From the NCBI RefSeq assembly GCF_014204515.1, contig NZ_JACHLI010000035.1:44454-76453 (forward strand): 32,000 nucleotides of DNA, given 5' to 3'. The notes beneath the pieces were generated by a model, which had not been told where the DNA came from, did not search any database, and saw nothing but the letters and a program-made list of their open reading frames with translations. The translations under genes were made by a program, and so were the position numbers. This document shows, piece by piece, positions 14,046-32,000 of the stretch. Every line of letters begins with the position of its first letter. Position 1 is the first letter of the stretch. This DNA is from Pseudomonas nitroreducens. GTDB taxonomy: Bacteria; Pseudomonadota; Gammaproteobacteria; Pseudomonadales; Pseudomonadaceae.

Positions 14046-14122
14046 GGCTACATAGCTCAGTCGGTTAGAGCGCAGCATTCATAATGCTGATGTCCCAGGT
14101 TCAAGTCCCGGTGTAGCCACCA
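14046..14122 (+). tRNA. tRNA-Met (anticodon CAU, elongator type)
   Basis: 77-nt cloverleaf: acceptor ggctaca/tgtagcc, anticodon arm cagca-ttCATaa-tgctg, T arm ccagg-ttcaagt-cccgg, and an encoded CCA. Same position as PAO1 PA4673.1, as I recall. Confidence 0.95.
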
Positions 14123-14464: not shown

Positions 14465-14495
14465 AGCCCGGCAGACTAGCCGGGCTTTTTCATTT
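14465..14495 (+). terminator. Terminator-like hairpin about 45 nt upstream of the Rhs start codon
   Basis: agcccggc-agacta-gccgggct followed by TTTTTcaTTTT. It lies inside the GTG-extended track ORF (14451), which argues for the ATG at 14538 as the real start. Confidence 0.5.
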
Positions 14496-14537
14496 TCGCC
14501 TTTTAATTCCCACTCAAAAAATCAGAGTGAGCCACAA

Positions 14538-16076: not shown

Positions 16077-16092
16077 CGCCAAGGAAGTCATC

Positions 16093-18729: not shown

Positions 18730-18739
18730 TAGGTGAGAT

Positions 18740-19216
18740 ATGACCGATCCATTCATAGAAATTCATGAGCTATTGCGCGGCAAGGATTATGAAACCGCGT
18801 TCAACAGGCTATACAATAAAAATACAAATTCCATAAGCGAGGAATTCAAGGAGGACTACAACCATGCGTGGTACATAATTGGAGACATATTCTTTAAATC
18901 CTCCAACTATGAAATGGCGATACACTCATTCAAGAAGGCATTAGAAAGCCGGATTGACGACATTGAAGCCTACCGCGCCCTGGCCAATAGTTACTCCGCA
19001 ATTGGAGCCCCTGAGAAGTCATGTGAGCAGCTTAATACGGCACTTCAATTTTCTCCAAACGACCCAATTCTTAATTACAACCTAGGGAATGCGTTCTTCG
19101 ATATTGGGGACTACAAAAAAGCCATAAAAGCATACGAGAAGGTTCCTCATGACCAAGGAGAGATTTACACACTAGCCCAAGAAAATATCAAGAGATCGAA
19201 AGATCTAGTCTCTTAA
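18740..19216 (+). CDS. TPR-repeat protein, candidate cognate immunity protein for the Rhs tip
   Basis: 158 aa, AT-rich like the Rhs tip. Good SD (aggtgag). Starts 11 nt after the Rhs stop. At least three TPR-like repeats (AWYIIGDIFFKSSNYEMAIHSFKKAL, AYRALANSYSAIGAPEKSCEQLNTAL, LNYNLGNAFFDIGDYKKAIKAYEKV). The immunity role is inferred from position only. Confidence 0.55.
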   Translation: MTDPFIEIHELLRGKDYETAFNRLYNKNTNSISEEFKEDYNHAWYIIGDIFFKSSNYEMAIHSFKKALESRIDDIEAYRALANSYSAIGAPEKSCEQLNTALQFSPNDPILNYNLGNAFFDIGDYKKAIKAYEKVPHDQGEIYTLAQENIKRSKDLVS

Positions 19217-19224
19217 AATGACTC

Positions 19225-19250
19225 GGGGCGTTTCAATAGCGCCCCTCTTT
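19225..19250. terminator. Weak hairpin between the convergent TPR gene and the integrase
   Basis: ggggcg-tttcaatag-cgcccc followed by tcttt. Confidence 0.35.
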
Positions 19251-20238
19251 AATTGCCGAAAGAATTCATCTGAGCAATTGGAGATAAGCGCAGGGCCGAC
19301 TCCAAATGCTCCGGCGACAAATGCGCATACCGCATCGTCATCGTGATCGACGAGTGCCCCAGGATCCGCTGCAGCGTGAGGATGTCCCCTCCTCCCATCA
19401 TGTAATGGCTGGCGAAGGTGTGGCGGAGAATGTGGGTCAGTTGGCCCGGCGTCTGGAATCCACAGCGCTCATAGGCGCAATGGAAGGCGGCGCGGCATGA
19501 CATGAACAGGCGGCCGGTTCCCGGCATGCCCACCTTGAACATCAGTTGCTCCAGCTCGGCCGGGATCGGCACTGAGCGGCTCTGACGGTTTTTGGTCCGG
19601 TGGTAGTGGACCTTTCCCCCATGCACGGCCCCACGGGCGATGCTCTCGGCCTCTTCCCAGCGGGCACCTGTAGCGAGGCATAGGAGAGCGACCGGGTACG
19701 TGTGGTTGTTCGTGCTGGCCTTGCACTCCTCGAGGAGCTGGCCGACCTGATCCAGGGTGAGGAAGGTCAGTTCGACCTGATCGGTTTTGATCTGCCGGAC
19801 GTTGGCCAGCGGGTTTGCCTTGTGCCACGAACCGAGGCGGATCAGCTCGGAGAAGATCGCCGACAGGTAGCGCTGTTCGTGGTTTACCGTCTCCGGTTTC
19901 ACCTCGGTCAGTCGACGTTGGCGATAGCGTGCCCAGGCAAGCGAATCGAACTCGAAGGCCTGCGGATCTCCGAGGCGTTCGGCCAATGCTTGGCAGCGTG
20001 CCAAACGCTGTTTGCCGTCCTTCAGGGTGCAGCCGTGGAGGTCGTACCAGACCTTCACCAGATCCGAGAGGCGATCATCCAGCGGGCGGCCAGTCTCGCC
20101 CAGGACGGTGAAGAAGTCCTGCTCGTAGCGAATGGCTGCAGACTTGGTAGCGAAGCCTTTCTTGCGGATCCTGCGACCGGAACGACCGTTCTCGTAGAAG
20201 TCAGCCGTCCACGTTTTCCCATCCTTGCGCGCGGTCAT
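19249..20238 (-). CDS. Tyrosine recombinase / phage integrase (IntF-like)
   Basis: 329 aa. The C-terminal catalytic region has ATGARWEE, HILRHTFASH and LGHSSITMTMRYAHL (the R..HxxR..Y signature). ATGA overlap with the rep stop. Confidence 0.9.
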   Translation of the reverse strand: MTARKDGKTWTADFYENGRSGRRIRKKGFATKSAAIRYEQDFFTVLGETGRPLDDRLSDLVKVWYDLHGCTLKDGKQRLARCQALAERLGDPQAFEFDSLAWARYRQRRLTEVKPETVNHEQRYLSAIFSELIRLGSWHKANPLANVRQIKTDQVELTFLTLDQVGQLLEECKASTNNHTYPVALLCLATGARWEEAESIARGAVHGGKVHYHRTKNRQSRSVPIPAELEQLMFKVGMPGTGRLFMSCRAAFHCAYERCGFQTPGQLTHILRHTFASHYMMGGGDILTLQRILGHSSITMTMRYAHLSPEHLESALRLSPIAQMNSFGN

Positions 20239-21527
20239 ATCGCGTAGCCCCGCCTGATGTATCGATCGTTGATCAGTCCGATGACGTGCTTTTCGAGGTC
20301 GCGAGTGCTGTAGCCCTTGGCGGTGTAGTGGTCTTCGATCACGTGCCAGAAGGGAAGCGTTCTCCCGACCTCAAGCGCTTTTTTTGGCGGGATGCGCTCC
20401 CGTGCGATCAGGCTGGCGAACTGTCCCAGGAACATCTCGCAGTTCTTGCCGGAGAAGCCCTGAGCGGTCTTGTAGTAGCGGCGGTACTCGGTGCGTTCGA
20501 TGAGCGGATCGGCTTCCACCTGCACCTGGGTGTCGAGGCTGATCAGCGACCAGAAGGCGTCGAAGATCCCTTCCCGGGAAATCAGCTTGTAGTTGTCGCA
20601 GGCGTACTGCCAGAGGCCCTGCAGGTGCGGGCAAAGGCCCTCATAGGTGCGGCAGCCGATCACCTCGCCAGAGGTCATCGTGGAACCTTCGGAGAACTGC
20701 TGGATGATGGAGTGGTGATAGCGGAACTCGATACGCCACACGGTTTCCAGCGGGTTGAAGGCGGGCTCACCATCGCCGAACGGATCGCCGTTCAGGGATG
20801 CCCACACGGACTCCCAGTAGTCGAGTTTGTCGGTCGCTCTCGCCTGCAGCGTCTTGTTGTACAGGCACATCTGCAGGCCGTTAGCCGAGCCGAACATGAA
20901 GGTCTCGCCACGCCCGTAAACCGAGGCGTTGCCGTCGTACTCGATGCGGTCAATGCCGCTGATCTGGCGCACACGGCGGGAGCGGCAGTGCATGCGGTCC
21001 ACGAAGTCTGCAGGCGGGGTCCAACCCTGGACGTCTAGGGCGATATGGACGGCGCACTGGTTCACTTCGAAGGCTGAGAGCACTCCGGCGGCCAGGTCAT
21101 CCATTACGCCCTGCAGGATCTTCGGATCGGCATCATCCAGGGCGTGTGGAGAAACTTCGATCTTGAGGTGCGGGCCGATGTTTTCCAGCTTCACGTTATG
21201 GTTCTTGATCAGCAGGATCAGGCCCATGTCGGCGTTCTGCAGGCGGTACTGGTAGCCCGAGTCGCGACCGATGCGGCCCTTGGCCCACTTGTAGCCGGCG
21301 AAGTTGACGAGATCCTCGGGCTCATCGAACAGCGCCATGACCTCCGGGCGGATCATGCCGTTGTACAGCTGCCGCACGGTATCGACGCCACAACGCAGCA
21401 GGCGAACAGCCGACAGGTCGGCGAATCTGCCGTTGCTCGGGTCCATGAAAATCCGTCCTTCGGACGACTCATAAAAATCCCCGTTCTCCTTGAGGATCAG
21501 GCGGAGGGGGTGAACTGCCTTTTTCAT
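20235..21527 (-). CDS. Filamentous-phage replication initiation protein (PA0727-like)
   Basis: 430 aa. Position between zot and int, and size, match the Pf4 replication initiator. The assignment rests on synteny plus remembered similarity and was not searched. Confidence 0.75.
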   Translation of the reverse strand: MKKAVHPLRLILKENGDFYESSEGRIFMDPSNGRFADLSAVRLLRCGVDTVRQLYNGMIRPEVMALFDEPEDLVNFAGYKWAKGRIGRDSGYQYRLQNADMGLILLIKNHNVKLENIGPHLKIEVSPHALDDADPKILQGVMDDLAAGVLSAFEVNQCAVHIALDVQGWTPPADFVDRMHCRSRRVRQISGIDRIEYDGNASVYGRGETFMFGSANGLQMCLYNKTLQARATDKLDYWESVWASLNGDPFGDGEPAFNPLETVWRIEFRYHHSIIQQFSEGSTMTSGEVIGCRTYEGLCPHLQGLWQYACDNYKLISREGIFDAFWSLISLDTQVQVEADPLIERTEYRRYYKTAQGFSGKNCEMFLGQFASLIARERIPPKKALEVGRTLPFWHVIEDHYTAKGYSTRDLEKHVIGLINDRYIRRGYAI

Positions 21528-21598
21528 TCTTTCGTACCTTCAATGAGGTTTATTGAGGTGCTTACTCGTTAGCTATCCGACGTGTTACAGGGTCGTCG

Positions 21599-21651
21599 GC
21601 CGCGCCGCCGGCCTACCGCTCGTGCCTTACGCTCTCGGCCGGCGGCGCGGC
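21599..21651. repeat. Perfect 15-bp GC-rich inverted repeat with a 23-nt loop in the zot/rep intergenic region
   Basis: gccgcgccgccggcc (21599-21613) is the exact reverse complement of ggccggcggcgcggc (21637-21651). A second small hairpin, ccgacg...cgtcgg (21577-21599), abuts it. Confidence 0.8.
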
Positions 21652-21659
21652 TCGCCAAT

Positions 21660-21770
21660 TCAAAAGGGAAACGCCGCCATCGGCTGAACCAGCTGCAACG
21701 CGCTGAAGAATCCGAGCGCAAAGGCGAGTACGAGCAGTCCGAGGGCATTGATCAGTCCGGGGATGTTCAT
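21660..21770 (-). CDS. 36-aa hydrophobic protein translationally coupled to zot (below the ORF-track cutoff)
   Basis: The ATG at 21770 overlaps the zot TGA (ATGA). A strong SD GGAGGAAGCA lies directly upstream. Translation is [36 protein letters not shown], with high GC3 like its neighbours. Confidence 0.55.
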
Positions 21771-23053
21771 TGCTTCCTCCAGGGCCGTGAGGCGTATTCG
21801 CTGTCGGGTACCACGACCACCTGTTGAGGAGGCGTTGGTGGACTGCTGGCGGGAGATATCGCAGCGGTAAGCGGGGCGTTGGAGGTCGTTGGTCTGGCCG
21901 CAGCTCCAGCGCAGGTAACGGTCTGCTTCCAGCGCTCGTACATCAGCTCGGCGATGCAGGCGCCCTTGCTGCGGACGGCGTAGCCGGAGCCGATCAGTTC
22001 CCAGCTGGTGAGGTCGAGCCGGCGGCCATCGAGGTCGACCAGGGCGAACATGTACTGGTCGCCTTTCTTCTTGCTGTAGAGGTGGGCGGTGATGGTGATG
22101 GAGCGGCCGGCGAAGGGGTGCGGATTCAGATCAGGAGGCGGATCAGCTGGCCGACCAGGTAGAGGCTGAGCAGGAACAGTCCCAGGCGCAGGAGGACGCG
22201 TCGAAGCAGCCACAGCAGCGGCTTGAGCAGGGGCCGCAGGACTGCCCGGAGCAGTCGCAGCAGCAGACGCGGCAGGGGCTTGAGCAGCATGCCCGCCGAC
22301 GACCTTGAGAGGTCCCATATAGCTGACAAAGCCAATAGTGCAGGCCAGCAGTGCCAGTAGAAAAACCAGCTTAGGGGACCGGAGCAGGCTCTTGCCGGCT
22401 TTGGTGTCCTGGGTCTTGCCGGTGGCGGTGGACTGGTAGAGGGCGAAGGTCTGTTTCTTGATTCGCTTGTATTCGACGATGGTGCCGTCGGCGGGTGGTC
22501 GGTTGAGCTGGGCGTCATGCTGAGCCTCCTTGTAGCGGCCGGGGATGCCGATCACTGCGAGGTTGGAGTGCTTGTAGGCCATCTCGCAGGTCATGCGGAT
22601 GTCGTCGCGGATGTAGCTGATGTTGGGGGTGGTGAGGACGATGTCCCAGTTGAAGTGGCGGTGCCGGGTCCAGGCGTCGAGCCAGCCCATGGGGCGGTCG
22701 GCGGCGTGGGCGGCTTCGGGGCCGCCGGGGTAGTCGAATTTTTCCAGGTCCTTTTCCCGCCAGGATTTGGGGAACAGCAGCTGGGTTTCGTCGAAGATCA
22801 GAAAGGCGCCCCGCGGCGCCCACTGGAACCAGCTGCGCATTTTGTCGAGGTCGGCGAGGGATTCGAGATCGAGGTTGATGATCTCGGCGCTGGCCGGCAG
22901 CTCGGGGAAGACGTCGTAGGCGCGCTCCAGGGTGAAGCCGCGGACGTTGGTGATGATGACGCGGCCTTCCTGCAGGGCCGGGACGGCGTCGTCCTGAATG
23001 GCGCCGGAGGTCTTGTAGGAGCCGTTGGGGCCGTGGTGGATCTTGATGGACAT
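21767..23053 (-). CDS. Zot-like / pI-type filamentous phage assembly ATPase (PA0726-like)
   Basis: 428 aa. N-terminal Walker [12 protein letters not shown], a central TM segment ([17 protein letters not shown]), and an Ala/Pro-rich C-terminal region. Confidence 0.88.
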
Positions 23054-23056
23054 GGG

Positions 23057-23413
23057 TCACCTCCCGATGAAGGGCACGAAGCGCATGCAGAAGCGCGTGA
23101 CGGCCGCGACGAAGATGATGTTGAGGGCCTGCGGGACGCCGAAGAACGTCAGCGCGGAGACGATGGGGGCCGGTAGTGCGCCGTACATCGAGCGCACCAG
23201 CTGGCCGACACCGAGGCTTTCGATGAGGTCGTTGGCGACGGTGAAACTGACGTCGATGAGCAGGAGGAAGGTCTGCAGGGCGCTGTACATCGCGGCCTTG
23301 GTGGCGACGACAAGGCCGTCCTTGACGAAGTCGTAGACGCCCTGGGCGAAGAAGTTCCAGATCCACTGGAAGAAGCCGATGATCTGATCGAGGAAGCCTG
23401 ATAGCCATTCCAT
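23057..23413 (-). CDS. Minor coat / pVI-like membrane protein (PA0725-like)
   Basis: 118 aa, very hydrophobic and aromatic-rich. SD AGGAG. Lies between coaA and zot. Confidence 0.7.
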   Translation of the reverse strand: MEWLSGFLDQIIGFFQWIWNFFAQGVYDFVKDGLVVATKAAMYSALQTFLLLIDVSFTVANDLIESLGVGQLVRSMYGALPAPIVSALTFFGVPQALNIIFVAAVTRFCMRFVPFIGR

Positions 23414-23417
23414 GAGG

Positions 23418-24683
23418 TCACTCCTTGAGGACGATGAGGGCGGCGATGACGGAGGCCATGAGCAGCAGCGCGAGCCGGAGGTTGATGAGCTGTTCGCCGT
23501 AGTCGGCGACGCAGAAGCGGTAGGACTTGCCCCAGACGCTGATGGAGTCGCAGGGCAGCTGGCCGCCGCCGGCGGAGAGGTTGAGGTCGAAGGCGCTTTT
23601 CATCTGATCGACGTTGGCCTTCACCTTGTCCTTGAGTTCTTTCTTGGCCTCTTCCAGGCGCTGGTCCCACTCTTCGTTGGCCTTGTCCCAGCTGCCGGAC
23701 TCGGGGGCGTTCAGGCCGGACTCGGGGCCTTCGCCGCCGCCGCAGAGGTAGCCTTTGCGCGGGTCGCATTCGCCCTCGCCTTCGCCGTCGTCATCTCCTT
23801 CGCCGTCGCCACTGCCGCTGCCTGATCCGCTACCGGAGCCGCTTCCCGAGCCGCCACCGCTGTCGTCGTCATCCCAGCAGTCGCCCTCGATGTCGCAGGG
23901 TTCACCTGGGGTATCGTCGTCCTCGCCGTCGTCACCGCCCTCATCGTCGGCCGGGTCTTTCGTGCAGGCGCCGCCATCCCATGCCTGGCCGGCGGGGCAG
24001 CCGGGGTCGTCGGGGTCCGATGGCGGCGACGGGGTATCGGGGGTGTCGTCGGGGTTTGGGGGATCGCCGACGTCCGGGCCGGGGGCGTCTTCGCTGCTGC
24101 AGCGTTCGCCGTTGCTGGCCATCGTGTAGTTGCAGAAGCCGGTGTCGGCGGATCCGCTGAGGAGGTAGCAGGAGGCGGCCTTGCTGCTGGTGGAGATGTA
24201 CAGGCAACTCGCGCTGCAGACGCTGGAGGGCGGGGTACTGAGGACGAGGACGCGGCCGGAGACGGTGGTGACGGGAGAGTCGGCGCCGCGGGTCAGCAGT
24301 TGCAGGCCGCTGTCGCAGGAGGGCGGTGCGACGCACAGGCCGGTAGCGTCCTGCTCCTGGCCTTCGGGGCAGGCGCAGCCATAGATGGTTTCACTGTAAA
24401 CACGGCCACCGGAGCATGAGTCGCCATGTCGCCTGAAGTTGATAATGCCAACGTGTACGCCACTGTCCCGCCATCTCCATTTGCAGTAACCGGAGGTACC
24501 AGACGGGTTCATGACGAACTCGTACATTTCCTGGTTGCCGCCATCAACTACTGGCCCGAGATAGCAAGCCTCCATCGCCGTCTTGTAGCCGGTACGCGTC
24601 CTGCCATCGTCCCAGTTGTAATCCTCCGCCCCCGCCTGCCCCACAAACAGCACCACCAGCAGCCACACCCATTGCCTCACCAT
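23418..24683 (-). CDS. coaA: Minor coat adsorption protein CoaA (pIII-like)
   Basis: Start chosen at the ATG at 24683 (SD GGAG), giving the signal peptide MVRQWVWLLVVLFVGQAGA. The track start at 24722 lies inside the coaB terminator hairpin. Cys-rich N-terminal domains are followed by a Gly/Ser/Asp/Glu linker (GGGSGSGSGSGSGSGSGDGEGDDDGEGEGE) and a C-terminal membrane anchor. Confidence 0.85.
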   Translation of the reverse strand: MVRQWVWLLVVLFVGQAGAEDYNWDDGRTRTGYKTAMEACYLGPVVDGGNQEMYEFVMNPSGTSGYCKWRWRDSGVHVGIINFRRHGDSCSGGRVYSETIYGCACPEGQEQDATGLCVAPPSCDSGLQLLTRGADSPVTTVSGRVLVLSTPPSSVCSASCLYISTSSKAASCYLLSGSADTGFCNYTMASNGERCSSEDAPGPDVGDPPNPDDTPDTPSPPSDPDDPGCPAGQAWDGGACTKDPADDEGGDDGEDDDTPGEPCDIEGDCWDDDDSGGGSGSGSGSGSGSGSGDGEGDDDGEGEGECDPRKGYLCGGGEGPESGLNAPESGSWDKANEEWDQRLEEAKKELKDKVKANVDQMKSAFDLNLSAGGGQLPCDSISVWGKSYRFCVADYGEQLINLRLALLLMASVIAALIVLKE

Positions 24684-24699
24684 TGGAAATCTCCAGGCC

Positions 24700-24731
24700 A
24701 AAAAAAGCCCCCAACGGCGCACCGTGGGGGC
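24700..24731 (-). terminator. Strong rho-independent terminator downstream of coaB
   Basis: On the minus strand, gccccc-acgg-tgcg-ccgt-(t)-gggggc forms a 10-bp stem with one bulge. It is followed by seven U (an A-run at 24700-24706 on the plus strand). This is analogous to the terminator after the major-coat gene in Ff phages. Confidence 0.8.
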
Positions 24732-24833
24732 TTCCGCTGTCGTGTCAGCGCGTCAGAAGAATTCGCCGCAGCGGTACCCGGTGATGAAGGCGCCGGCGAA
24801 GAACGCCCCCAACCACACCGACCACAGCACCGC

Positions 24834-25070
24834 TTACGCCTTGCGCAACATGCTGTAGATCAGGCCTGCGCAGGCGAGGATGACCAGGGCGCCGACGATG
24901 TAGCCGCCGATGCTGGACATGTCTTCCTTGCCTTCGGAGATGGCGGTTTCGACGCTGGAGATATCGATGACCTTGGCCCAGGCCGGAACGGAGGTGGCAA
25001 CAGTCACGGCGCCGGCGATGCACAGGTTGCGGAAGGCGGTGACCGGGTTGATGGTTTGCAGTGCGTTCAT
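24834..25070 (-). CDS. coaB: Major coat protein CoaB (pVIII-like) precursor
   Basis: 78 aa. The mature region ...IDISSVETAISEGKEDMSSIGGYIVGALVILACAGLIYSMLRKA is almost the Pf1 coat sequence as I remember it (GVIDTSAVESAITDGQGDMKAIGGYIVGALVILAVAGLIYSMLRKA). Confidence 0.95.
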   Translation of the reverse strand: MNALQTINPVTAFRNLCIAGAVTVATSVPAWAKVIDISSVETAISEGKEDMSSIGGYIVGALVILACAGLIYSMLRKA

Positions 25071-25083
25071 AGGTAGTTCCTCT

Positions 25084-25332
25084 CTATCGGGCTTTACGGA
25101 GAAGTGACGCGACCCAGCCCGTCAGCAGGCCCGTCACGAAGGCTCCCAGGACGCCTGCAGCACCCACGCTGAAGGCCTCCAGGGAGAACCCGCCATTGGC
25201 CAGGAGCTCTACTGCTCCGGCGGCCTCGGGCGGTATCAGGTAGGCCTGTTGCCATTCGAACTGCTGGCAACGCATCAGGCCGTCCGCAGTGGACTCCCAA
25301 CTGCTGCAGACCTGTACGGCAACAACGCCCAT
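25084..25332 (-). CDS. Pf hypothetical membrane protein (PA0722-like position)
   Basis: 82 aa with a C-terminal TM helix and basic tail (GVLGAFVTGLLTGWVASLLRKAR). Immediately upstream of coaB. Confidence 0.6.
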   Translation of the reverse strand: MGVVAVQVCSSWESTADGLMRCQQFEWQQAYLIPPEAAGAVELLANGGFSLEAFSVGAAGVLGAFVTGLLTGWVASLLRKAR

Positions 25333-25494
25333 TCACTCGTCCTCCACGTCGTTCAGCTCGGTCAGCTCCAGGCAGTCCGGGCAGATGTGGCGGGTGGGTT
25401 CGGGCAGCAGAGCGGGGGCGACTGCCGGTTCGTTCCACAGGTGGCCGATGGCGCTGCCGCAGCGATCACAGAAGAGGTAGCCGTCCACGTTCAT
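25333..25494 (-). CDS. 53-aa protein with two CxxC motifs (zinc-ribbon-like), below the ORF-track cutoff
   Basis: Hand translation: MNVDGYLFCDRCGSAIGHLWNEPAVAPALLPEPTRHICPDCLELTELNDVEDE. SD GGGAGA lies 9 nt upstream. The stop TGA abuts the next ATG (TGAATG). High GC3. Confidence 0.6.
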   Translation of the reverse strand: MNVDGYLFCDRCGSAIGHLWNEPAVAPALLPEPTRHICPDCLELTELNDVEDE

Positions 25495-25509
25495 GTGCCC
25501 GTCTCCCGG

Positions 25510-25941
25510 TCAGTTCTTCGGCTGCTCGCCGGGCTTGTCAGCGGCAGGCTTGTCGCTGGTGGGCTGCGGCTGAGTCGGACGTTGGGTGGGCTGCTGTACA
25601 GAGGGCTGGCGGGGTTGCGTGGTGGCGTCCTTGCCCACGCTCAGGAGCTCGGTCAGCACCTGGGTATTGGTGGTGCGGCCGAAGCGGTCCTGTGTCGGGC
25701 GGACGACGCTGCCGAACTTGCACAGCAGCGGCTGGCCCTGGAAGACGATGCCGTCGAGCAGGCTCGGCTCGATGTTGTATTCGCTGATCTCGAAGCCCTT
25801 GGCGTTGCCGCGAGCGCCTTCGGGGATTGGGGAAATGGCCTGAACGCTGGCGTAGATTTCGCCGGTCTTGGTGGAGGTGTAGGTGTCGGTCTTGGTGACC
25901 CAGAGTTCGACTACGCCGCCGGTGGTGGCAAACATGTTCAT
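25510..25941 (-). CDS. Pf ssDNA-binding protein (gene 5 protein / PA0720-like)
   Basis: Start at the ATG at 25941 (SD GGAG) gives MNMFATTGGVVELWVTKTDTYTSTKTGEIYASVQAISPIPEG..., which matches my memory of Pf1/Pf4 gene 5 protein. Pro/Gln-rich C-terminal tail. 143 aa. Confidence 0.9.
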   Translation of the reverse strand: MNMFATTGGVVELWVTKTDTYTSTKTGEIYASVQAISPIPEGARGNAKGFEISEYNIEPSLLDGIVFQGQPLLCKFGSVVRPTQDRFGRTTNTQVLTELLSVGKDATTQPRQPSVQQPTQRPTQPQPTSDKPAADKPGEQPKN

Positions 25942-26169
25942 GTGAAGCTCCTTTGCCTTTTTCGGGCATGAGTTGGCCCGCTGCTGCAATTTGGGCGCGT
26001 TGGTGGCCGTCATTCAGCGGGTGGGGTGGTGCCGTGGTTTGGGGTGTGGTGCGTGGTGGGAGCGAAGATCAACGTCGTAAGGGCGCTGCCCTTACCATCC
26101 CGCTCTCGCCGCCGAGGGCTCAGGAGCGCGGGGTGGTGGAGCTACCCCACCCTCCCGAGCTGAGGCTGT

Positions 26170-26376
26170 TCAGGGGGGAGCGCGGTCAAGGGTGCGCTTC
26201 GCCCGGCGCTCCGTTTGTCCGAACGGTAGAGCGTGTTCGGACAAGCCGGTGCGGCGGCCCCTGACCTGATTGGCCCAGGTGGGGCGGATGTGGCGAGCGG
26301 GGTATCGGCTCACCAGCAGCGCGACGGCGATGAAGGCGAGGCGGACGATCAGGTATGCGATGAACCTAGTGGACAT
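26170..26376 (-). CDS. Pf early-region hypothetical protein with an N-terminal TM helix
   Basis: 68 aa. SD GGGAGGG. Starts 4 nt after the upstream stop. High GC3. Confidence 0.5.
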   Translation of the reverse strand: MSTRFIAYLIVRLAFIAVALLVSRYPARHIRPTWANQVRGRRTGLSEHALPFGQTERRAKRTLDRAPP

Positions 26377-26379
26377 GGT

Positions 26380-26727
26380 TCAGCCCTCCCACTCGAATGG
26401 CTGGTGAATGGGCACGAAGGGCGTGGGCCTGCCGCTGTCGTAGACAACGTGCCAGTACTGCGGCGGACGGCGCGCGGGCGTGTGTTTGTCGCAGGTATAT
26501 CCCCGCTCCACACGATAGGTACTCGAAACCAGCCTCCAGGCACCGGAGACTCGACTCATGATCCCAACGACCGTGAATACTCGCGTAGGGCGGCACTGGG
26601 TGCATCGTGTGGACGGGCTGGAGTGATCCAGGGGCGAAGGGGTTTGCAGGATCCGGTTCGCGGCGCAGACAGAGCAGTCGCAGCCCGAAGAGTGGGGCTT
26701 GCCCAGGTAGGCATTGAAGAGGTTCAT
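26380..26727 (-). CDS. Pf early-region hypothetical Cys-rich protein
   Basis: 115 aa with GCDCSVC and CTQC clusters. Tightly packed between its neighbours (3-4 nt gaps). Confidence 0.55.
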   Translation of the reverse strand: MNLFNAYLGKPHSSGCDCSVCAANRILQTPSPLDHSSPSTRCTQCRPTRVFTVVGIMSRVSGAWRLVSSTYRVERGYTCDKHTPARRPPQYWHVVYDSGRPTPFVPIHQPFEWEG

Positions 26728-26730
26728 GGC

Positions 26731-26949
26731 TCATGCCCTCACCCCGCGCACTCGGTAGGCCTGCAAGGCGCGTTCACGGGTCAGGCTCCAGGAGCGAGGG
26801 GCTTCGGCTTCTGAGGGGAAGCCGGCGACGGTTTCGTTGATCCACTGCTCGCATTCGGCGCGCGAGGTGCCCTGATGCACGCGGTGCCAGCGACGACGGC
26901 GGGTAAGGCCATGGAAGGTGCACATCTCCACCAGATAGCGATTACTCAT
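26731..26949 (-). CDS. Pf early-region hypothetical protein
   Basis: 72 aa from the ATG at 26949 (MSNRYLVEMCTFHG...). 8-nt overlap with the xis stop (ATGAGTAA). The longer track ORF (to 27102) would overlap xis out of frame. Confidence 0.5.
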   Translation of the reverse strand: MSNRYLVEMCTFHGLTRRRRWHRVHQGTSRAECEQWINETVAGFPSEAEAPRSWSLTRERALQAYRVRGVRA

Positions 26950-27214
26950 CGTCGTAATCCCCCTGGCAGAAGATCGACTTGCCCTTGTCGAGGTCGCGGC
27001 GGATTTTGTGGAGGTTGATGACGCGGCGGCGGCCAATCTTGGCGGTCGGCACGGTCCGGGTTTCGACCCAACCGCGCACCACGTCTTCCGTGATGTCCTC
27101 AAGGCCCAGCATCTGGGCGAATACCGCTTGGGAGCAGAACGGCGCAGTTCGGAAGTCAGTAACCTTTTCGACAGCTCCCGTGACCGTGAACCCCACTATT
27201 CCAGAATCTTCCAT
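26942..27214 (-). CDS. Excisionase / early activator (XisF-like, PA0718 position)
   Basis: 90 aa. First gene of the leftward phage operon, divergent from the repressor, with SD AGGGAG. Contains an HTH-like segment (CSQAVFAQMLGLEDITEDVVRGWV). The call is by position and by resemblance to my memory of Pf4 XisF4. Confidence 0.65.
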   Translation of the reverse strand: MEDSGIVGFTVTGAVEKVTDFRTAPFCSQAVFAQMLGLEDITEDVVRGWVETRTVPTAKIGRRRVINLHKIRRDLDKGKSIFCQGDYDDE

Positions 27215-27334
27215 ACGAACTCCCTATAATCGGGCCGGACGTTCCCAGCGCTTAGCTGGAGTAAAATTTACGCATGAGTAAAGGCTACCCCCGCAAATTG
27301 CGTGCGTAAAGGTTACTCTCCGTGAGAAAAGTCG
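27215..27334. promoter_or_regulatory. Pf lysogeny switch region (divergent xis / repressor promoters with repeated operator-like motifs)
   Basis: Three GTAAA-N-TAC type sites: 27261-27271 GTAAAaTTTAC (a perfect 5-1-5 palindrome), 27278-27288 GTAAAGGCTAC and 27306-27316 GTAAAGGTTAC. Also a GCAAaTTGC palindrome at 27293-27301 and a perfect TATAAT on the plus strand at 27225-27230. Confidence 0.55.
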
Positions 27335-27604
27335 ATGGATTCTGTAAGAAATAGAGCGCTTCAACTGATCCGAACGCTTGGTCCTAAGCACCTCAGTGAG
27401 CTTGGCGGGAAGAACTACGATCGCTGGAGAAATATCAGTAGCGGCAAGATCAGGATTAGTACTGAGGAAGTCGGCATCTTGGCGGACGCATATCCTCATT
27501 ACGCGCTTTGGCTGATATCGGGACGGACAGAACCCGAGAATGGGCACCGAAGCCCGGAGTATGACGAAGCTGATCGAAACTTGGCCGGACACGACGCGGG
27601 ATAG
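27335..27604 (+). CDS. Pf repressor C (Pf4r/PA0717-like immunity repressor)
   Basis: 89 aa, divergent from xis. The pattern ...STEEVGILADAYPHYALWLISGRTEPENGHRSPEYDEA... resembles the Pf4r family as I recall it. Confidence 0.7.
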   Translation: MDSVRNRALQLIRTLGPKHLSELGGKNYDRWRNISSGKIRISTEEVGILADAYPHYALWLISGRTEPENGHRSPEYDEADRNLAGHDAG

Positions 27605-27789: not shown

Positions 27790-27848
27790 CTGGCTAAGCC
27801 CCTATTTGCTAGGCCCAATCAACCTACAGCTACAAGGACGTGAATCAG

Positions 27849-28181
27849 ATGAAAACCATACTGACCAGCCTTGCCATCCTGAGCTGCACCACCCTCGCAT
27901 CCGCTGAAGAGAAAACCGCCCTAGCCGAAGCCGCCGAGGCGATGAAACCCATCATCGAAATCCCTGCGGACTACCTCCAGAAAAGCATCATGCAAAGCCT
28001 TGCCGGTGGTAAAGGACCACTAGCGGAAGGGGCCAGGCGAAACCTTACGATGCAGGCTCAACGCGACAGAGAAGCCTATAGAGGCGTGCGCAGACCCATG
28101 AGGGAGTGCATAAAGCCCGACAACGTCATTGATGATGACGTGAAGGAGTGCACAGAAGGAACTCGCGAGAAAACTTGGTGA
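27849..28181 (+). CDS. Small secreted (possibly lipo-) protein of unknown function
   Basis: 110 aa from the ATG at 27849 (SD aagga). The track starts at the GTG at 27840. Signal peptide MKTILTSLAILSCTTLASA, then a charged helical region and a CxxxxxxxxxxxxC pair near the C-terminus. Confidence 0.6.
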   Translation: MKTILTSLAILSCTTLASAEEKTALAEAAEAMKPIIEIPADYLQKSIMQSLAGGKGPLAEGARRNLTMQAQRDREAYRGVRRPMRECIKPDNVIDDDVKECTEGTREKTW

Positions 28182-28187: not shown

Positions 28188-28211
28188 GGGTGAATCCGTT
28201 CACCCCTTTCC
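28188..28211 (+). terminator. Hairpin terminator after the secreted-protein gene (convergent with the three-gene operon)
   Basis: gggtgaa-tccg-ttcaccc followed by ctttcc. Confidence 0.5.
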
Positions 28212-28217: not shown

Positions 28218-29363
28218 TTACCGCACAGCCTCACGAACTTTCCGCGCGGCAACTTTACTTTCAAACTCAAGAACCTCTAGAGCCACAGCCTCAATATGAT
28301 GGTTTGTATCAAAGGCAATCCAGTCAGAAGAATTCCCTTTTATTTCCCCATGACTGCATCTCAGAATCTGCGCATCCCCCCAACTAAGGCCAGGCATATA
28401 GTGGCCAGAATCAATAATAGTTTGAGCAAGATCATAGTACTGAGCGCCTTTCAAGCCTTCCTTGATAGGATATCCTCGAGCTATAAAGTATTCCTTTTCG
28501 ATTGTATACCTAATCTTTCCGTTGGTACTTGAAGGGCCCCCAACGTCATTCGAATTAGGCCCGCGAATCCCGTAATCGGAGAAAACAACTGCTCTCGGAC
28601 CGACCTCATTCAAAACCAAGTCTCGCCATACCAACATTTCTTTACGGAGCACTAAGCCCGTTGAATTCTGTTCTTTTACAGCATCTGAAATAAAAGCGGG
28701 CAACGAGCAACCAGAAACACTTATATCAATAAATCCCGCACGACGAAGAAGAGGAATAGCCTTTCCGGCAACTTCGAGAGTAGCTGGGACTGTATGTCGC
28801 TGCGAAGACAAATCTCCGAAATCAACCATGATCCGAGTTAGCCCCGGGTCTAGGGCAAGCACATCGCAAATCTCCTCCAATCTTGCGAAGAAAACATCTT
28901 CCTCAGACATCTCCTCTATCGTATCGCGATCAATTGGGAAACGAACAATGAACTCTCGCCCAGACTCTAACCGCATACCCTGCAACGCGTTGACATAGAC
29001 CGGGTCGTCCCAGCGTACTATATCAACTACTGGACTTACCTTTACCCCCATAGACTCGAGCTGATTCCTCATAAAAGGAATAACGTGCTCACCACCCTCT
29101 GTTTGTGCATTGGTAGCCCAACGAGGTAAATCCAAGTATACAGACCGACCTTTACACGCTCGCGACATCTCAAACGTGATGGAATTAAGGAATGACTCCA
29201 CAGGAGGAGAATGCCGCTCCAGCAATTCCATCCGACGTTTATCACTAAGCGGAGGCACATCAAACCACGGCTGTATAGCTCTCAACGCTCTATCCGAAAG
29301 CAAAGACACCGCTCTCAGTTCCCCTTCCTTCGCTTTCAGAATCGGAATGTATCTCGCGCTCAT
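28218..29363 (-). CDS. Beta-family protein (Pfam Beta_protein-like, named after satellite phage P4 beta as I recall); third gene of the operon
   Basis: 381 aa. The N-terminal MSARYIPILKAKEGELRAV matches the Y-x-P-I-L-K-x-K-x-G-E signature I associate with this family. The ATG (29361-29363) directly abuts the upstream TAA (29364-29366). About 42% GC. Confidence 0.6.
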   Translation of the reverse strand: MSARYIPILKAKEGELRAVSLLSDRALRAIQPWFDVPPLSDKRRMELLERHSPPVESFLNSITFEMSRACKGRSVYLDLPRWATNAQTEGGEHVIPFMRNQLESMGVKVSPVVDIVRWDDPVYVNALQGMRLESGREFIVRFPIDRDTIEEMSEEDVFFARLEEICDVLALDPGLTRIMVDFGDLSSQRHTVPATLEVAGKAIPLLRRAGFIDISVSGCSLPAFISDAVKEQNSTGLVLRKEMLVWRDLVLNEVGPRAVVFSDYGIRGPNSNDVGGPSSTNGKIRYTIEKEYFIARGYPIKEGLKGAQYYDLAQTIIDSGHYMPGLSWGDAQILRCSHGEIKGNSSDWIAFDTNHHIEAVALEVLEFESKVAARKVREAVR

Positions 29364-30575
29364 TTATACACCCTCAGGAGTATCTAGAAATAGCTTCCTC
29401 ACTTCACCGCGCCCAAGCATATCCGTAAAAATCTGATAATTTTCACTTTCCCTTTGAATTCTTCCAACAATAATAGAAGGATGAATTCTTAGCTCTCGAG
29501 ACAATTTGTCAATATTTTCTCGAGTTGGCGACAGCGAAACCTCGCTTCTCTTCCAAGAAACCCTAGGAATAAAAGCTTCTCGTGCCAACCTATTAGCCTC
29601 GGCCTCCCGACCATCATCAGACGAAGCGTCTAGGTCATCTAAAAACGTCTCTTCTCTTCCAATATGTTTCCAAATATGGGCAACTTCATGAAGAAGAGTG
29701 AACCAGAAATTATCTAAACGGTCATGTCTCAAAGTCAACGCAACAACCGGTGTTCCATCAGCATCCTTCAATGATGCTCCGTCCAGCATGGTCCCTTTTA
29801 AATGCGGCTCTACCACTACCACAATTCCATTTTTCTCTAAAAACTCTACAGCCAAGACAGGTCCATGCTCCGACCAACTCAACTGGGCCAGATCGCGCAA
29901 AAACGAACTAGATAGCGTACGTTCATCAAAAACACCTACGCGACCTTTTTTTTCCCTTGCCTTCTGAATGACTCGAACCAGCCATGCATAGAGGGCGTAT
30001 TTTGTTGCCGGTGAATATGCATCCCCCAGCGGCGCTCGTTTAAATGCGGCCCCTCCAACACCCCAGCCAATCTGGGAAATAAAGTCCCTTACCGTTTCCT
30101 CGGTAGTTCGCGTAGCTTTTCCAACAATTTTTTGAATCCAACCTCTCGCAACCATTTCTTTGACTGGAAACTTAGTCCAATCAACGTCCTCTTTAGAGGA
30201 AGAATTTTCCGGCACTGAGACACCAACTAGAGTCTCAGCAGAAATCCCAAGCCCAACCGCCAAAGCCCTAATCATTGGAACTGTCAGAGGCCGCTTTCTT
30301 CCTAAAACCTCAGACACTCTACTTCTAGTACCAAAATAAGGAATCAAATCAGCTTGTTTATAACCTTTTTCCTGCATCCTAAATAGAATTGCATCGATCG
30401 GATCAGGAGCCTCTACTGGATGCTTCTTATCTTCGTATGCTTCCACTAGCACAGTAAGCAATTCAAGACGATCACTTTCTAGAGATCCTGGAGCAGGCTC
30501 TAACTCTATTAGCCTGCCAATCTCTTCGAGGTAAGCCGAATGCTGTTCCTCTGTTCGTATGACCTTAGTGTCCAT
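29364..30575 (-). CDS. Fusion protein: HigA-type XRE helix-turn-helix antitoxin domain + ImmA/IrrE (M78, COG2856) zinc metalloprotease domain
   Basis: 403 aa. Residues ~1-115 resemble E. coli K-12 HigA (YgjM)-type antitoxins, including GTRSRVSEVLGRKRPLTVPMIRALAVGLGISAETL. Residues ~240-340 carry FWFTLLHEVAHIWKH (HEVAH at 29676-29690, verified on the DNA) and EAEANRLAREAFIP, the HExxH...ExxANxFA..P pattern of ImmA/IrrE peptidases. Confidence 0.75.
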   Translation of the reverse strand: MDTKVIRTEEQHSAYLEEIGRLIELEPAPGSLESDRLELLTVLVEAYEDKKHPVEAPDPIDAILFRMQEKGYKQADLIPYFGTRSRVSEVLGRKRPLTVPMIRALAVGLGISAETLVGVSVPENSSSKEDVDWTKFPVKEMVARGWIQKIVGKATRTTEETVRDFISQIGWGVGGAAFKRAPLGDAYSPATKYALYAWLVRVIQKAREKKGRVGVFDERTLSSSFLRDLAQLSWSEHGPVLAVEFLEKNGIVVVVEPHLKGTMLDGASLKDADGTPVVALTLRHDRLDNFWFTLLHEVAHIWKHIGREETFLDDLDASSDDGREAEANRLAREAFIPRVSWKRSEVSLSPTRENIDKLSRELRIHPSIIVGRIQRESENYQIFTDMLGRGEVRKLFLDTPEGV

Positions 30576-30843
30576 TGCTTTCTTCTATAGTTATCAACGT
30601 CGTAATCAACGCCACTCGTTGAGGAAACGCTACGCGCACCTCAATCATGTAGTTTCCCGTCACGACACAAAATCTAAAAATCCCAGACGCGATCTGTTGC
30701 GCCTTCGGAAATTGGGCCAGCAAATCGGCAGAATCGTTCCACGATGCGTGAATCACTTCTGAAACCCAGCTGACAATCCATTTATCTAGTCCCTTGTCAC
30801 GCCCCTTAAGCGGCCCGAGCTTGTCTCTTCCCAGCAGATGCAT
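30565..30843 (-). CDS. HigB-type (HigB_toxin / E. coli YgjN-like) RelE-superfamily mRNA interferase toxin
   Basis: 92 aa. MHLLGRDKL...LLAQFPKAQQI...FCVVTGNYMIEVRVAF parallels E. coli K-12 HigB (MHLITQKAL...LKAVFPSLD...FNVGGNELRVVAMVFF) as I remember it. 11-nt overlap with the downstream HTH gene. Toxin-first order is typical of hig loci. Confidence 0.7.
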   Translation of the reverse strand: MHLLGRDKLGPLKGRDKGLDKWIVSWVSEVIHASWNDSADLLAQFPKAQQIASGIFRFCVVTGNYMIEVRVAFPQRVALITTLITIEESNGH

Positions 30844-30852
30844 AGCTTAAAT

Positions 30853-30865
30853 TCCCAATTTGGGA
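30853..30865. promoter_or_regulatory. Operator-like palindrome O1 (TCCCAAtTTGGGA), overlapping the predicted transcription start and leader
   Basis: Perfect 6-1-6 inverted repeat. It is part of a 17-bp direct repeat, aaattcccaatttggga, shared with O2. Confidence 0.6.
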
Positions 30866-30867
30866 TC

Positions 30868-30896
30868 AAATTACGCCGTCACGACTGAACAGTCAA
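30868..30896 (-). promoter_or_regulatory. Near-consensus sigma70 promoter of the higB-like operon
   Basis: On the minus strand: TTGACT (complement of 30891-30896), exactly 17 bp, then TAATTT (complement of 30868-30873). The ATG at 30843 lies 25 nt downstream of the -10. Confidence 0.65.
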
Positions 30897-30903
30897 CAAA
30901 AAT

Positions 30904-30916
30904 TCCCAATTTGGGA
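30904..30916. promoter_or_regulatory. Operator-like palindrome O2 (TCCCAAtTTGGGA), just upstream of the -35
   Basis: Identical 13-bp palindrome, 51 bp (about 5 helical turns) from O1. Together the two bracket the -35/-10 hexamers. Confidence 0.6.
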
Positions 30917-31223
30917 ACAACGGCAATCCTTTACCATGGCTTATAGCCACTATACCCTCACGATGAGAAGGGCTAAGACGAGCACAAAAGTTGATTTGCG
31001 CAGCAGAGATAAGGTGAACTGCTCATCGAAATAGTTGTCTGGGGAGAGCACTGCAGGTGGCCATTTACCGCAGAAAATGGCTTCGACAGGTTCAAAAACA
31101 CCCAGCGGTATGCCAACAGGGAGGAGCCGCAGCATCCGGCATAGCCTAGAAGCTCTGCTGTCCCTATCGACGCATAAACGCGCCAGTCCAAAAGACCCGA
31201 AATATGGTGCTCTATTTGAGAAA

Positions 31224-32000
31224 TCACCCCATCGGGCTAAATGAGCTTTCAGCGGTGCAATATCGCTCCTTCATCTGGTAGCTCCAATCCGAGCGATCTT
31301 TGCCAGCACGAGCAGTCCAAGCGCGGCATTGCTCACGAAAATGCACCTTGGCTCCTTTTCGGCACTCACGATACTCAACGGAACCCCAGCCTTGGTTCCG
31401 GCAGACAGAGCCGCCATCAATAACGTTGTTAATAGCAACCCACTCAGCCAGATAGCTGCTTCCGCCATCCCAGCTCTTTATCCACTGCGAATTGCGCTCC
31501 TGGGTGTGATTTTGAGTTCTACCCTGCCGAGCTATCCGCCGATCCCGCTCAGCCTGAAACCGCGCTAAGTATTCTTGGGAAACCATGCCTTGAGGCTCAG
31601 CAGGCTTCTGCGAAGCGCGGGCCCGCGGTAGCTCGCCACCGTTTTGGCAACGAATCACTTCTTCATCAATGGCATTACGGCCATGCAGGCAATCGCGCAG
31701 TGTGCGTCGGCTGGAGGCTTCTGGGGCAGTTTGGCGATGGGCCACTTCAGGAGGAGGTGCCGGAAGAGTCCGAGGGTCTTCGGCGATCGGAATACTTTCT
31801 TCGACGGGCTCGGAAGCCAACAGTCGATCTACAAGTGATCGGAGCGATGGCCAAGTAAGAGCGAGAACCGCAAGGAGCACCATGCCGCCAAGCAAGTGCA
31901 GAGCGTTCCAACGGAAAGTCCTGGGACGCTTTCGAGCCCTTCCCTCTCGTTGACGCTCGCTACTTTCGCGGCGCATCCATTCACGGTCATCCAGTCCCAT
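31224..32000 (-). CDS. Hypothetical single-pass membrane protein with a Cys-containing C-terminal domain
   Basis: 258 aa. The ATG sits exactly at the window edge (31998-32000), so the true start could be further upstream. It has a basic N-terminus (MGLDDREWMRRESSERQREGRARKR), one TM helix (ALHLLGGMVLLAVLALTW), a Pro-rich linker, and a C-terminal ~100 aa with four Cys. About 55% GC, lower than the core genome. Confidence 0.55.
   Translation of the reverse strand: MGLDDREWMRRESSERQREGRARKRPRTFRWNALHLLGGMVLLAVLALTWPSLRSLVDRLLASEPVEESIPIAEDPRTLPAPPPEVAHRQTAPEASSRRTLRDCLHGRNAIDEEVIRCQNGGELPRARASQKPAEPQGMVSQEYLARFQAERDRRIARQGRTQNHTQERNSQWIKSWDGGSSYLAEWVAINNVIDGGSVCRNQGWGSVEYRECRKGAKVHFREQCRAWTARAGKDRSDWSYQMKERYCTAESSFSPMG

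Follow-up and report, generated by a model that had tools for sequence, protein, structure and literature searches.

A three-gene operon and its Pf prophage setting

We analysed a window of 32,000 nt from Pseudomonas nitroreducens (contig NZ_JACHLI010000035.1), in which three tightly coupled minus-strand ORFs, here called genes A, B, and C, encode proteins of 92, 403, and 381 aa, respectively. The operon and a hairpin beside it comprise the following features:

30565..30843, minus strand: gene A, PD-λ-2 A by its PADLOC PD-Lambda-2_A match; HigB-fold protein of 92 aa, probable neutraliser of B (PADLOC, Pfam, motif loss)
29364..30575, minus strand: gene B, PD-λ-2 B by its PADLOC PD-Lambda-2_B match; HigA-like HTH plus ImmA/IrrE (M78) metalloprotease, 403 aa
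28218..29363, minus strand: gene C, PD-λ-2 C by its PADLOC PD-Lambda-2_C match; Beta_protein (Pfam PF14350), 381 aa
28188..28205, no strand assigned: GC-rich hairpin, a terminator-like site and possibly a shared terminator, between the convergent gene C and ORF 27840-28181

Positions 30565-30575 are common to A and B (an overlap of 11 nt), and the ATG of C (29361-29363) directly abuts the TAA of B (29364-29366) with no gap; re-deriving the coordinates bore out the initial view, taken from the letters alone, of one operon of three same-strand genes joined by an overlap and abutting codons. Terminator-like sites were no more numerous than in shuffled sequence, so support for the hairpin at 28188..28205 is weak. 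The GC content of the operon is 46.5% (48.7% in A, 44.9% in B, and 47.5% in C), compared with 65% in positions 1-14000 of the window; the low GC first noticed by eye holds as a contrast with the surroundings, but the value given for it, 40-45%, lies below the measured one. The NCBI annotation names the three proteins as a HigB family toxin, an ImmA/IrrE metalloendopeptidase, and a beta family protein; NCBIfam returned no matches for A, B, or C.

On either side of the operon lie genes of a Pf prophage:

19249..27214, minus strand: Pf prophage backbone (integrase, replication protein, Zot, CoaA, coat, and ssDNA-binding protein, to the excisionase)
27335..27604, plus strand: Pf repressor, 89 aa (phrog_147, a transcriptional regulator family, 7e-22; 80% identical to the annotated PfAC11 repressor)
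27840..28181, plus strand: Pf accessory ORF, 113 aa, with a signal-peptide-like N-terminus (phrog_5121, 2.3e-49)
31224..32000, minus strand: Pf accessory ORF, 258 aa, flanking the operon on the side away from the repressor (phrog_7381, 7e-46)

The backbone shares ~80% nucleotide identity with Pf phages, has Pfam Zot and integrase matches, and is colinear with PfAC11 and with a P. aeruginosa locus (L083). Homologues of the 113-aa ORF were found only in Pf phage records, adjoining the repressor; Pf phage records were also the sole source of homologues of the 258-aa ORF, such as PfAC08 ORF5, which adjoins the repressor. Because Pf-specific genes occupy both flanks, gene content places the operon inside the accessory region of the Pf prophage. 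It had been described as lying next to a Pf prophage; the phage-end cargo location stands, but “next to” becomes “inside”. Similarly, the trio recurs in a Pf prophage of P. aeruginosa, inside att boundaries formed by tRNA-Met and a partial tRNA-Met copy. No second tRNA-Met att copy was detected in the window (exact 12-25-mers, and a 23-mer with at most three mismatches), so the assignment to the prophage is based on the flanking Pf genes and the P. aeruginosa parallel. The slot beyond the Pf repressor holds Avs in PfAC11 and IetAS in PfAC08. When GenBank phages were searched by tblastn, C gave no match and B no close full-length match; thus, no Pf genome deposited there carries the trio, and the Pf genomics literature that we searched makes no mention of PD-λ-2.

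Domain content of the three proteins

The assignment of gene A to the HigB family is upheld by a match to Pfam HigB_toxin PF09907, which is marginal (29.3 bits with a cut-off of 27; a canonical relative of A reaches 100 Pfam bits vs 29 for A). Three motifs of this family, K-RY, FNiKGN-YRL (FNxKGNxYR), and GTHaEY (GTHxEY), are present in E. coli HigB (5ifg_A) and in 26 canonical PF09907 relatives, and canonical HigB motifs are retained in distant relatives of the operon; all three are absent from A and its 51 subclade relatives. With this loss, the further claim that A is a bona fide RNase toxin is not supported; A is instead predicted to be catalytically inactive as an RNase. Sequence searches of the PDB gave no match for A and none for a canonical relative used as a single query; E. 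coli HigB was reached in the PDB only with a profile of canonical relatives.

Gene B contains two recognizable parts:

30231..30560, minus strand: HigA-like Xre HTH, B residues 6-115 (alignment with E. coli HigA, phrog_11202)
29556..29828, minus strand: Peptidase_M78 core, B residues 250-340 (Pfam PF06114, 4.4e-8)

Residues 6-115 align with E. coli HigA (5ycl_A and 5ifg_B, E = 0.005-0.006), and the HTH region matches phrog_11202 (4e-28) and shares 48% identity with a HigA-like region of Stx phages; a Pfam search of B returned no HTH match. The sequence HEVAH is found at residues 296-300 (29676-29690), with EAEANRLAREAFIP downstream, and H296, E297, H300, E324, E326, and N328 are invariant among the aligned homologues, as are the HExxH and E-x-E-A-N motifs. 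A HigA-type HTH running on into an ImmA/IrrE protease had been recognized in this gene from the letters, and the 5ycl/5ifg alignment and the Peptidase_M78 match with its invariant HEVAH both agree.

Gene C matches Pfam Beta_protein PF14350 over its full length (4.2e-55), which confirms the family proposed for it, kin to β of satellite P4. Its AlphaFold2 model (pLDDT 93.3) has a predicted (β/α)-barrel and a helical C-terminal domain, and the closest PDB folds to this model are TIM and aldolase barrels; by sequence, C against the PDB gave noise only. With acidic, basic, and His residues invariant among its relatives, C is probably a TIM-barrel-like enzyme.

Identity of the operon and its conservation

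The system PD-λ-2 was described in E. coli ECOR42 as a HigB-like protein, a HigA-HTH-peptidase fusion, and a P4-β-like protein (Vassallo et al., 2022; PMC9519451). There, B is toxic by itself and A relieves this toxicity; the defence, which is of the abortive-infection type and acts against λvir, requires C, but the neutralisation does not (PMC9519451). All three window proteins match the PADLOC PD-Lambda-2 models full-length: A matches PD-Lambda-2_A (PDLC03978) with E = 3e-30 (residues 1-84 on positions 1-84 of the 87 in the profile), B matches PD-Lambda-2_B (PDLC03982) with E = 8.4e-184 (positions 1-397 of 402), and C matches PD-Lambda-2_C (PDLC03984) with E = 4.8e-135 (positions 1-373 of 377); the three genes follow one another on one strand in the defining order A-B-C. 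The operon is very probably an orthologue of PD-λ-2, an abortive-infection anti-phage system, carried as cargo in the Pf-like prophage slot beyond the repressor. The sequence-only reading had put the trio forward as an undescribed system, naming as its refutation an already named system with this architecture; PADLOC holds one, published in 2022. Thus, the operon belongs to a system type that is already known, and the claim of novelty fails.

A survey of co-occurrence, proposed together with that claim, showed the trio with its order kept in 60 of the 80 species-representative loci, including 48/48 of those whose B has an identity of at least 55%; a chance juxtaposition of three genes was rejected in view of the 60 loci that keep the trio. 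E. coli carries the same trio, with 31% (A), 63-64% (B), and 39-40% (C) identity to the window proteins; the roles given to A, B, and C here are those of E. coli PD-λ-2, carried over by homology at these levels of identity, the lowest being those of A and C. The ECOR42 system probably falls in the same subclade, as judged by operon length and PADLOC model PDLC03980. Our search of the literature for follow-up on the mechanism of PD-λ-2 or Beta_protein found surveys only.

Promoter and operators

Upstream of gene A, a promoter lies between two operator-like palindromes:

30903..30917, minus strand: palindrome O1, TTCCCAAATTGGGAA, directly ahead of the -35 (detected as a repeat)
30891..30896, minus strand: -35 hexamer TTGACT, read in the sequence (TTGAC(A/T) at the equivalent place in homologous loci)
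30868..30873, minus strand: -10 hexamer TAATTT after a 17-nt spacer (position equal to that of TATATT, TATAAT, and TACAAT in homologues)
30853..30865, minus strand: palindrome O2, TCCCAAATTGGGA, downstream of the -10 and before the start codon (detected as a repeat)

The promoter had been called near-consensus, which is apt for the -35 (5/6 positions) but generous for the -10 (3/6); because the -10 is weak, the promoter was missed by a consensus scan. The two palindromes said to bracket the promoter were indeed found on either side of it; each is a 6-7-nt inverted repeat with one central base, a 13-nt core is identical in both, and the distance from O1 to O2 is 51 nt. Paired operator-like sites (TTCCCAnnnTGGGAA) are conserved across the family of PD-λ-2 loci: the O1 motif recurs at the equivalent place in P. 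aeruginosa and in most PD-λ-2 loci, and at least two sites lie upstream of A in 48/76 loci and at least one in 74/76, with a spacing of 44-54 nt and a background density of 0.44 sites per kb. A direct-repeat scan of the window returned the RHS repeats and the operators, and nothing else.

Proposed mechanism and alternative explanations

The defence role suggested from the start fits the evidence, and a mechanism can be proposed for the PD-λ-2 orthologue. The HigA-like HTH of B would bind the two conserved palindromes, so that the operon is autorepressed. The toxic part would be B, whose ImmA/IrrE site is intact and which arrests growth (as demonstrated in the E. coli homologue alone); A would keep B harmless, as its neutralisation in E. 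coli indicates, probably by docking on B as HigB does on HigA, its RNase activity having presumably been lost. C, a relative of P4 β and a probable TIM-barrel-like enzyme, is needed for defence in E. coli and may be a sensor or a co-effector. An infection cue would free B, or B and C, and growth would stop before phage progeny form; the host population would be shielded from lytic phages, from which the prophage would gain.

Alternatively, A-B may work mainly as a switch of transcription, like CapH/CapP or ImmR/ImmA: a damage or infection cue would activate the protease, the HTH would be cleared from the operators, and the induced C would be the sole killer. The conserved pairing of operators across the promoter would suit such a switch, as would the enzyme-like invariant residues in C, a weak capP similarity of B (E = 9e-4), and six Burkholderiales loci in which a homologous B is found upstream of a Multi_ubiq gene, with no Beta protein. 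A HigB-like A precedes B in five of these six loci (tblastn), the Multi_ubiq gene itself also carries Prok-E2_E in 5/6, and JAB-E1 was confirmed in one only (L074); the arrangement looks like a portable regulator ahead of exchangeable effectors. We nevertheless consider the switch unlikely: E. coli B is toxic without C, neutralisation also works without C, and a single promoter serves A, B, and C, so C is not induced separately.

Less likely again is that the main role of the operon is prophage addiction or lysogeny control for the Pf element, as a stabilising TA module whose phage defence is incidental. The operon adjoins the Pf repressor/excisionase switch, the E. coli system behaves like a TA, and Pf prophages carry TA and regulatory genes as cargo, with effects on the maintenance and production of Pf, according to two reports (PMC11341870, PMC12328805); but no Pf genes lie within 6 kb of PD-λ-2 in any of the 80 species-representative loci, so PD-λ-2 is independent of Pf, the dedicated defence genes Avs and IetAS occupy the same Pf slot, and defence against λvir was shown for the homologue. 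The model first drawn from the sequence, in which A is an active HigB RNase and B a HigA-type antitoxin whose built-in protease destroys B itself or its HTH on a cue, leading to derepression and mRNA cleavage by the freed HigB, is very improbable: A is in the HigB_toxin family, the B N-terminus is HigA-like, the gene order is toxin-first as in HigBA, distant operon relatives keep canonical HigB motifs, and a later review repeats the HigB-toxin reading, but A is only just above the Pfam threshold, the subclade of A is without the K-RY, FNiKGN-YRL, and GTHaEY motifs, and the polarity in the E. coli homologue is the opposite, with B toxic by itself, A rescuing it, and C serving defence.

Returning to the PD-λ-2 family, we tentatively suggest a wider picture, which is possible although we hold it with considerable reserve. 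This subclade may be a role-reversed TA, with a catalytically dead HigB as the antitoxin of a protease-bearing HigA; A-B may be a portable trigger or regulator module with varied executors (a Beta enzyme here, a ubiquitin-like conjugation module in some Burkholderiales); and the slot past the repressor may be one in which Pf phages swap modules of this kind with Avs and IetAS.

Significance

As a discovery claim the operon matters little, since standard defence-finding tools would label the locus PD-λ-2, a system also included in DefenseFinder. PD-λ-2 is now documented as Pf inovirus cargo in two Pseudomonas species, in a slot used elsewhere for Avs or IetAS, which bears on phage therapy where the target Pseudomonas is lysogenic for Pf. 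For the mechanism of PD-λ-2, the comparisons offer testable leads in the degeneration of the HigB-like A, the conservation of the operators, the barrel fold of the Beta protein, and a third component that is exchanged.

Comparison with known systems

The pairs ImmR/ImmA, DdrO/IrrE, and CapH/CapP resemble the operon in pairing an Xre-type HTH with an M78 HExxH metalloprotease at the start of an operon that is defensive or borne on a mobile element. Here, however, HTH and protease form one polypeptide and a HigB-like partner is present; a separate HTH repressor gene is absent from the operon, unlike in CapP-like pairs, and B contains both HExxH and the downstream Glu ligand motif.

E. coli K-12 HigB-HigA (YgjN-YgjM) shares with the operon the HigB_toxin scaffold of A, a stretch that aligns with HigA in the first 115 residues of B, a HigB-like gene in first place, and palindromic operators at the promoter. 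A HigA-type HTH is thus present downstream of A, as one domain of the 403-aa B, but B has ~290 extra residues that include the M78 protease, A is without the conserved HigB motifs, the tested homologue has toxin and antitoxin the other way round, and a third gene is required. A plain type II HigBA module was rejected, given the lost motifs and the roles reversed in the homologue.

In both gop-β-cII of P4 and PD-λ-2, a β protein and an HTH accompany a peptidase-like toxic protein. The β of P4 is in the same Pfam family as C (PF14350), although the PADLOC “beta” model matches C with 1.8e-9 over residues 184-358 only, and gop-β-cII is likewise TA-like, anti-phage, and borne on a mobile element. 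The differences are that the cII HTH is a separate gene whereas the HTH here is fused to the peptidase in B, that a HigB-like protein is added, and that the context is a Pf prophage and not the P4 satellite hotspot; β neutralises Gop in P4, whereas the neutraliser of B in PD-λ-2 is A, with C dispensable for this step. No PADLOC gop model was among the matches of B at E up to 0.1, and membership in gop-β-cII was rejected for want of a Gop match and for the fused HTH.

PD-λ-2 of E. coli differs in host genus and in sequence (identities of 31% for A, 63-64% for B, and 39-40% for C); the window copy is inside a filamentous (inovirus) prophage, whereas the E. coli copy is in an integrase island. 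The two are alike in their three proteins, gene order, domain content, and full-length HMM matches, in the 11-nt A/B overlap, as in the E. coli locus L001, and in their paired operators.

Operon layout and identity

All three proteins of the operon were matched by the PADLOC models for PD-λ-2, an E. coli anti-phage system (Vassallo et al., 2022; PMC9519451): A matched PD-Lambda-2_A (E = 3e-30), B matched PD-Lambda-2_B (E = 8.4e-184, profile positions 1-397 of 402), and C matched PD-Lambda-2_C (E = 4.8e-135, profile positions 1-373 of 377); these matches are the decisive result for the identity of the operon. On every sequence-level criterion it is PD-λ-2, a system that came from a functional selection in E. 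coli ECOR42 and acts by abortive infection (PMC9519451). The sequence-only reading had taken the operon for a candidate undescribed system, a claim it made dependent on there being no named system of the same architecture; PD-λ-2, published and matched by all three proteins, is such a system, so the claim falls, and there is no categorically new feature at the window locus. In NCBI the window proteins are WP_184596341, WP_184596339, and WP_184596332, under Pseudomonas nitritireducens. The genes are:

30565-30843, minus strand: gene A, ORF of 92 aa
29364-30575, minus strand: gene B, ORF of 403 aa
28218-29363, minus strand: gene C, ORF of 381 aa

These ORFs, with an 11-nt overlap of A and B and the stop codon of B directly adjoining the start codon of C, are present exactly as first read from the sequence. 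Their contrast in GC content with the surroundings is also real (46.5% for the operon vs 65% for the first 14 kb of the window), although the initial estimate of 40-45% was too extreme. Upstream of A, the order is O1 (TTCCCAAATTGGGAA, 30903-30917), TTGACT, a 17-nt spacer, TAATTT, O2 (TCCCAAATTGGGA, 30853-30865), 9 nt, and the ATG. The two operator-like palindromes, O1 and O2, do bracket the promoter, but to call it near-consensus was generous: the -10 hexamer TAATTT agrees with the consensus at only three of six positions, and a consensus promoter scan did not call the operon promoter.

Among 76 homologous loci, 74 have at least one TCCCAnnnTGGGA-type site upstream of A and 48 have at least two (the background density of such sites is 0.44 per kb); paired sites lie 44-54 nt apart, flanking a TTGAC(A/T) hexamer. 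Because the two operator palindromes are conserved and bracket the promoter hexamer, autorepression of the operon by the HigA-like HTH of B, acting through the palindromes, is a well-supported inference. A terminator scan flagged O1 with its T-run (30902-30918) as an intrinsic-terminator-like hairpin; this call is most likely false, given the conservation of the palindrome as an operator beside the promoter. The hairpin could shield the operon from read-through out of the gene at 31224-32000.

Conservation of the trio

The same trio occurs on integrase islands of E. coli chromosomes, where RefSeq names the products HigB family toxin, ImmA/IrrE family metallo-endopeptidase, and beta family protein; identities between the window and E. 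coli proteins are 31% (A), 63-64% (B), and 39-40% (C). Genomes with a B relative belong to Pseudomonas, Enterobacterales, Acinetobacter, Burkholderiales, Methylococcales, and Acetobacteraceae, with more distant matches in other phyla. The conserved co-occurrence that the sequence-only reading had proposed as a check was found: the A-B-C order is kept in 60 of 80 species-representative genomes holding a B relative, and in all 48 where B is at least 55% identical. In an uncultured gammaproteobacterium (L070:5830-7206), the A and B frames seemingly form one 458-aa ORF, in which the N-terminal half of HigB leads straight into the HigA-protease; either a natural fusion or a frameshift introduced in assembly could account for this.

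Functional annotation of the three proteins

The families assigned in the sequence-only reading (HigB-type, HigA-HTH/M78 protease, and Beta) were borne out by Pfam and by alignment to HigA structures, and PF09907 and PF14350 appear in the supplementary HHpred tables for PD-λ-2 (PMC9519451). Protein A is a marginal match to Pfam HigB_toxin (29.3 bits; cut-off 27), and searching with a profile of its canonical relatives recovers E. coli HigB (5ifg_A; E = 2e-9). In B, residues 250-340 match Pfam Peptidase_M78, and the ImmA/IrrE site is intact, with HEVAH and EAEANRLAREAFIP invariant; the Pfam search of B gave no HTH match, and E. coli HigA structures can be aligned to residues 6-115, which are 48% identical to a HigA-like region of Stx phages.

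The motifs K-RY, FNiKGN-YRL, and GTHaEY are conserved in 26 canonical relatives of A, and all are gone from window A and 51 other members of its subclade, E. coli loci included. E. coli HigB shares FNxxGNxxR and THxEY with the canonical relatives and does not have K-RY. Conservation, together with what is known of RelE-superfamily RNases in general, suggests that the motifs form the active site; a literature search found no mutational data. The roles of the proteins were demonstrated for the ECOR42 system only, in which B is toxic when alone, co-expression of A rescues this toxicity, and C is dispensable for neutralisation and required for defence against λvir (PMC9519451). This polarity is opposite to the scheme first proposed, of a HigB toxin and B as its antitoxin, and the motif loss in A fits the experiment. 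We thus rejected a functional HigBA module, since the HigB motifs are absent from A and the ECOR42 roles are reversed. The tested ECOR42 system itself very probably falls in the degenerate-HigB subclade, since PADLOC model PDLC03980 is matched by E. coli locus L001 with 190 bits (92 of 92 positions), and the L001 operon has the same length, 2625 bp, as listed for ECOR42, where the system lies at QOYB01000002 229385-232009.

Protein C matches Pfam Beta_protein over its full length (E = 4e-55). In its confident predicted model (pLDDT 93.3), a barrel of alternating β/α units precedes a helical C-terminal domain; the top PDB matches, to triosephosphate isomerases and aldolases, hold at the fold level only (E = 3e-5; TM 0.33-0.37 relative to the query). 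Eleven residues (E15, R141, D181, R240, D263, Y264, G297, S327, D330, H355, and H356) are invariant in 44 homologues, which suggests that C is an enzyme.

Location in a Pf prophage

The operon had been described as next to a prophage of Pf, a filamentous Pseudomonas phage. The association holds, but the operon is not merely adjacent; it lies inside the accessory region, with Pf-only genes on both flanks:

19249-27604: Pf backbone, from the integrase through replication protein, Zot, CoaA, coat, ssDNA-binding protein, and excisionase to the repressor
27840-28181: gene between repressor and operon, homologues only in Pf phage genomes
31224-32000: gene on the far side of the operon, likewise with homologues in no genomes but those of Pf phages

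P. aeruginosa CP124638 has the operon together with its operators, at 73% identity, in the same prophage position, inside the att boundaries, with tRNA-Met on one side and a partial tRNA-Met copy on the other. The Pf phage record PfAC11, with a backbone almost identical to the CP124638 prophage, has an Avs gene in the PD-λ-2 slot, and PfAC08 has IetAS there; sites of this kind for defence cargo are thus already known, and PD-λ-2 is one further occupant of the slot. Pf genes were found near none of the 80 species-representative PD-λ-2 loci, so the Pf association is specific to this lineage. No second att copy was found within the window.

The P. aeruginosa counterpart lacks about 5 kb (14201-19248) that in the window separates tRNA-Met (14046-14122) from the Pf integrase. 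This stretch holds a low-GC ORF (14451-16076), a gene for an RHS-repeat protein with 10 RHS repeats and an RHS core (16093-18729), and beside the latter a small low-GC ORF (18740-19216), whose product could be the immunity protein for the RHS-repeat protein. A tRNA-Gln(ctg) was called inside the RHS ORF, at 17101-17187, probably falsely. Tandem tRNA-Gln(ttg) genes (10175-10249 and 10312-10386) lie 63 nt apart, the second overlapping the start of an ORF call (10355-11380). In the P. aeruginosa Pf prophage locus L083 (7269-7388, 7465-8060), a ~40-residue integrase fragment just outside the prophage att copy, with 71% identity to the C-terminal end of the window integrase, may be a relic of an earlier Pf integration. 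It adjoins a canonical HigB-like (PF05015)/HTH_3 pair, so that a genuine HigBA pair neighbours the PD-λ-2 pseudo-HigB.

Comparison with related loci and systems

In six Burkholderiales genomes (Acidovorax L074:5663-9925, L075, L078, L079, L080, and L081), a B homologue ~41-45% identical to window B is followed by a same-strand Multi_ubiq gene, with no Beta protein. The Multi_ubiq gene also has Prok-E2_E in five of the six (the 182-aa ORF of L079 matches Multi_ubiq only), and a Prok-JAB+ThiF(E1) gene was confirmed in L074 only. Five of these loci have a canonical, motif-bearing HigB-like A upstream of B; for L079, tblastn gave none. At another locus (L056), a pro-kumamolisin/S8 protease gene follows B. 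Leads on the mechanism of PD-λ-2 are the putatively dead HigB in the neutralising role, the conservation of the operators, the barrel fold of the Beta protein, and the position of A-B before ubiquitin-like conjugation genes in some Burkholderiales; they are family-level features and do not distinguish the window locus.

Membership in the gop-β-cII system of satellite P4 was rejected. The window locus is related to it through the Beta protein only, and differs from it in that none of the PADLOC gop models matches B, B contains the HTH as a fused domain, and the neutralisation logic is different.
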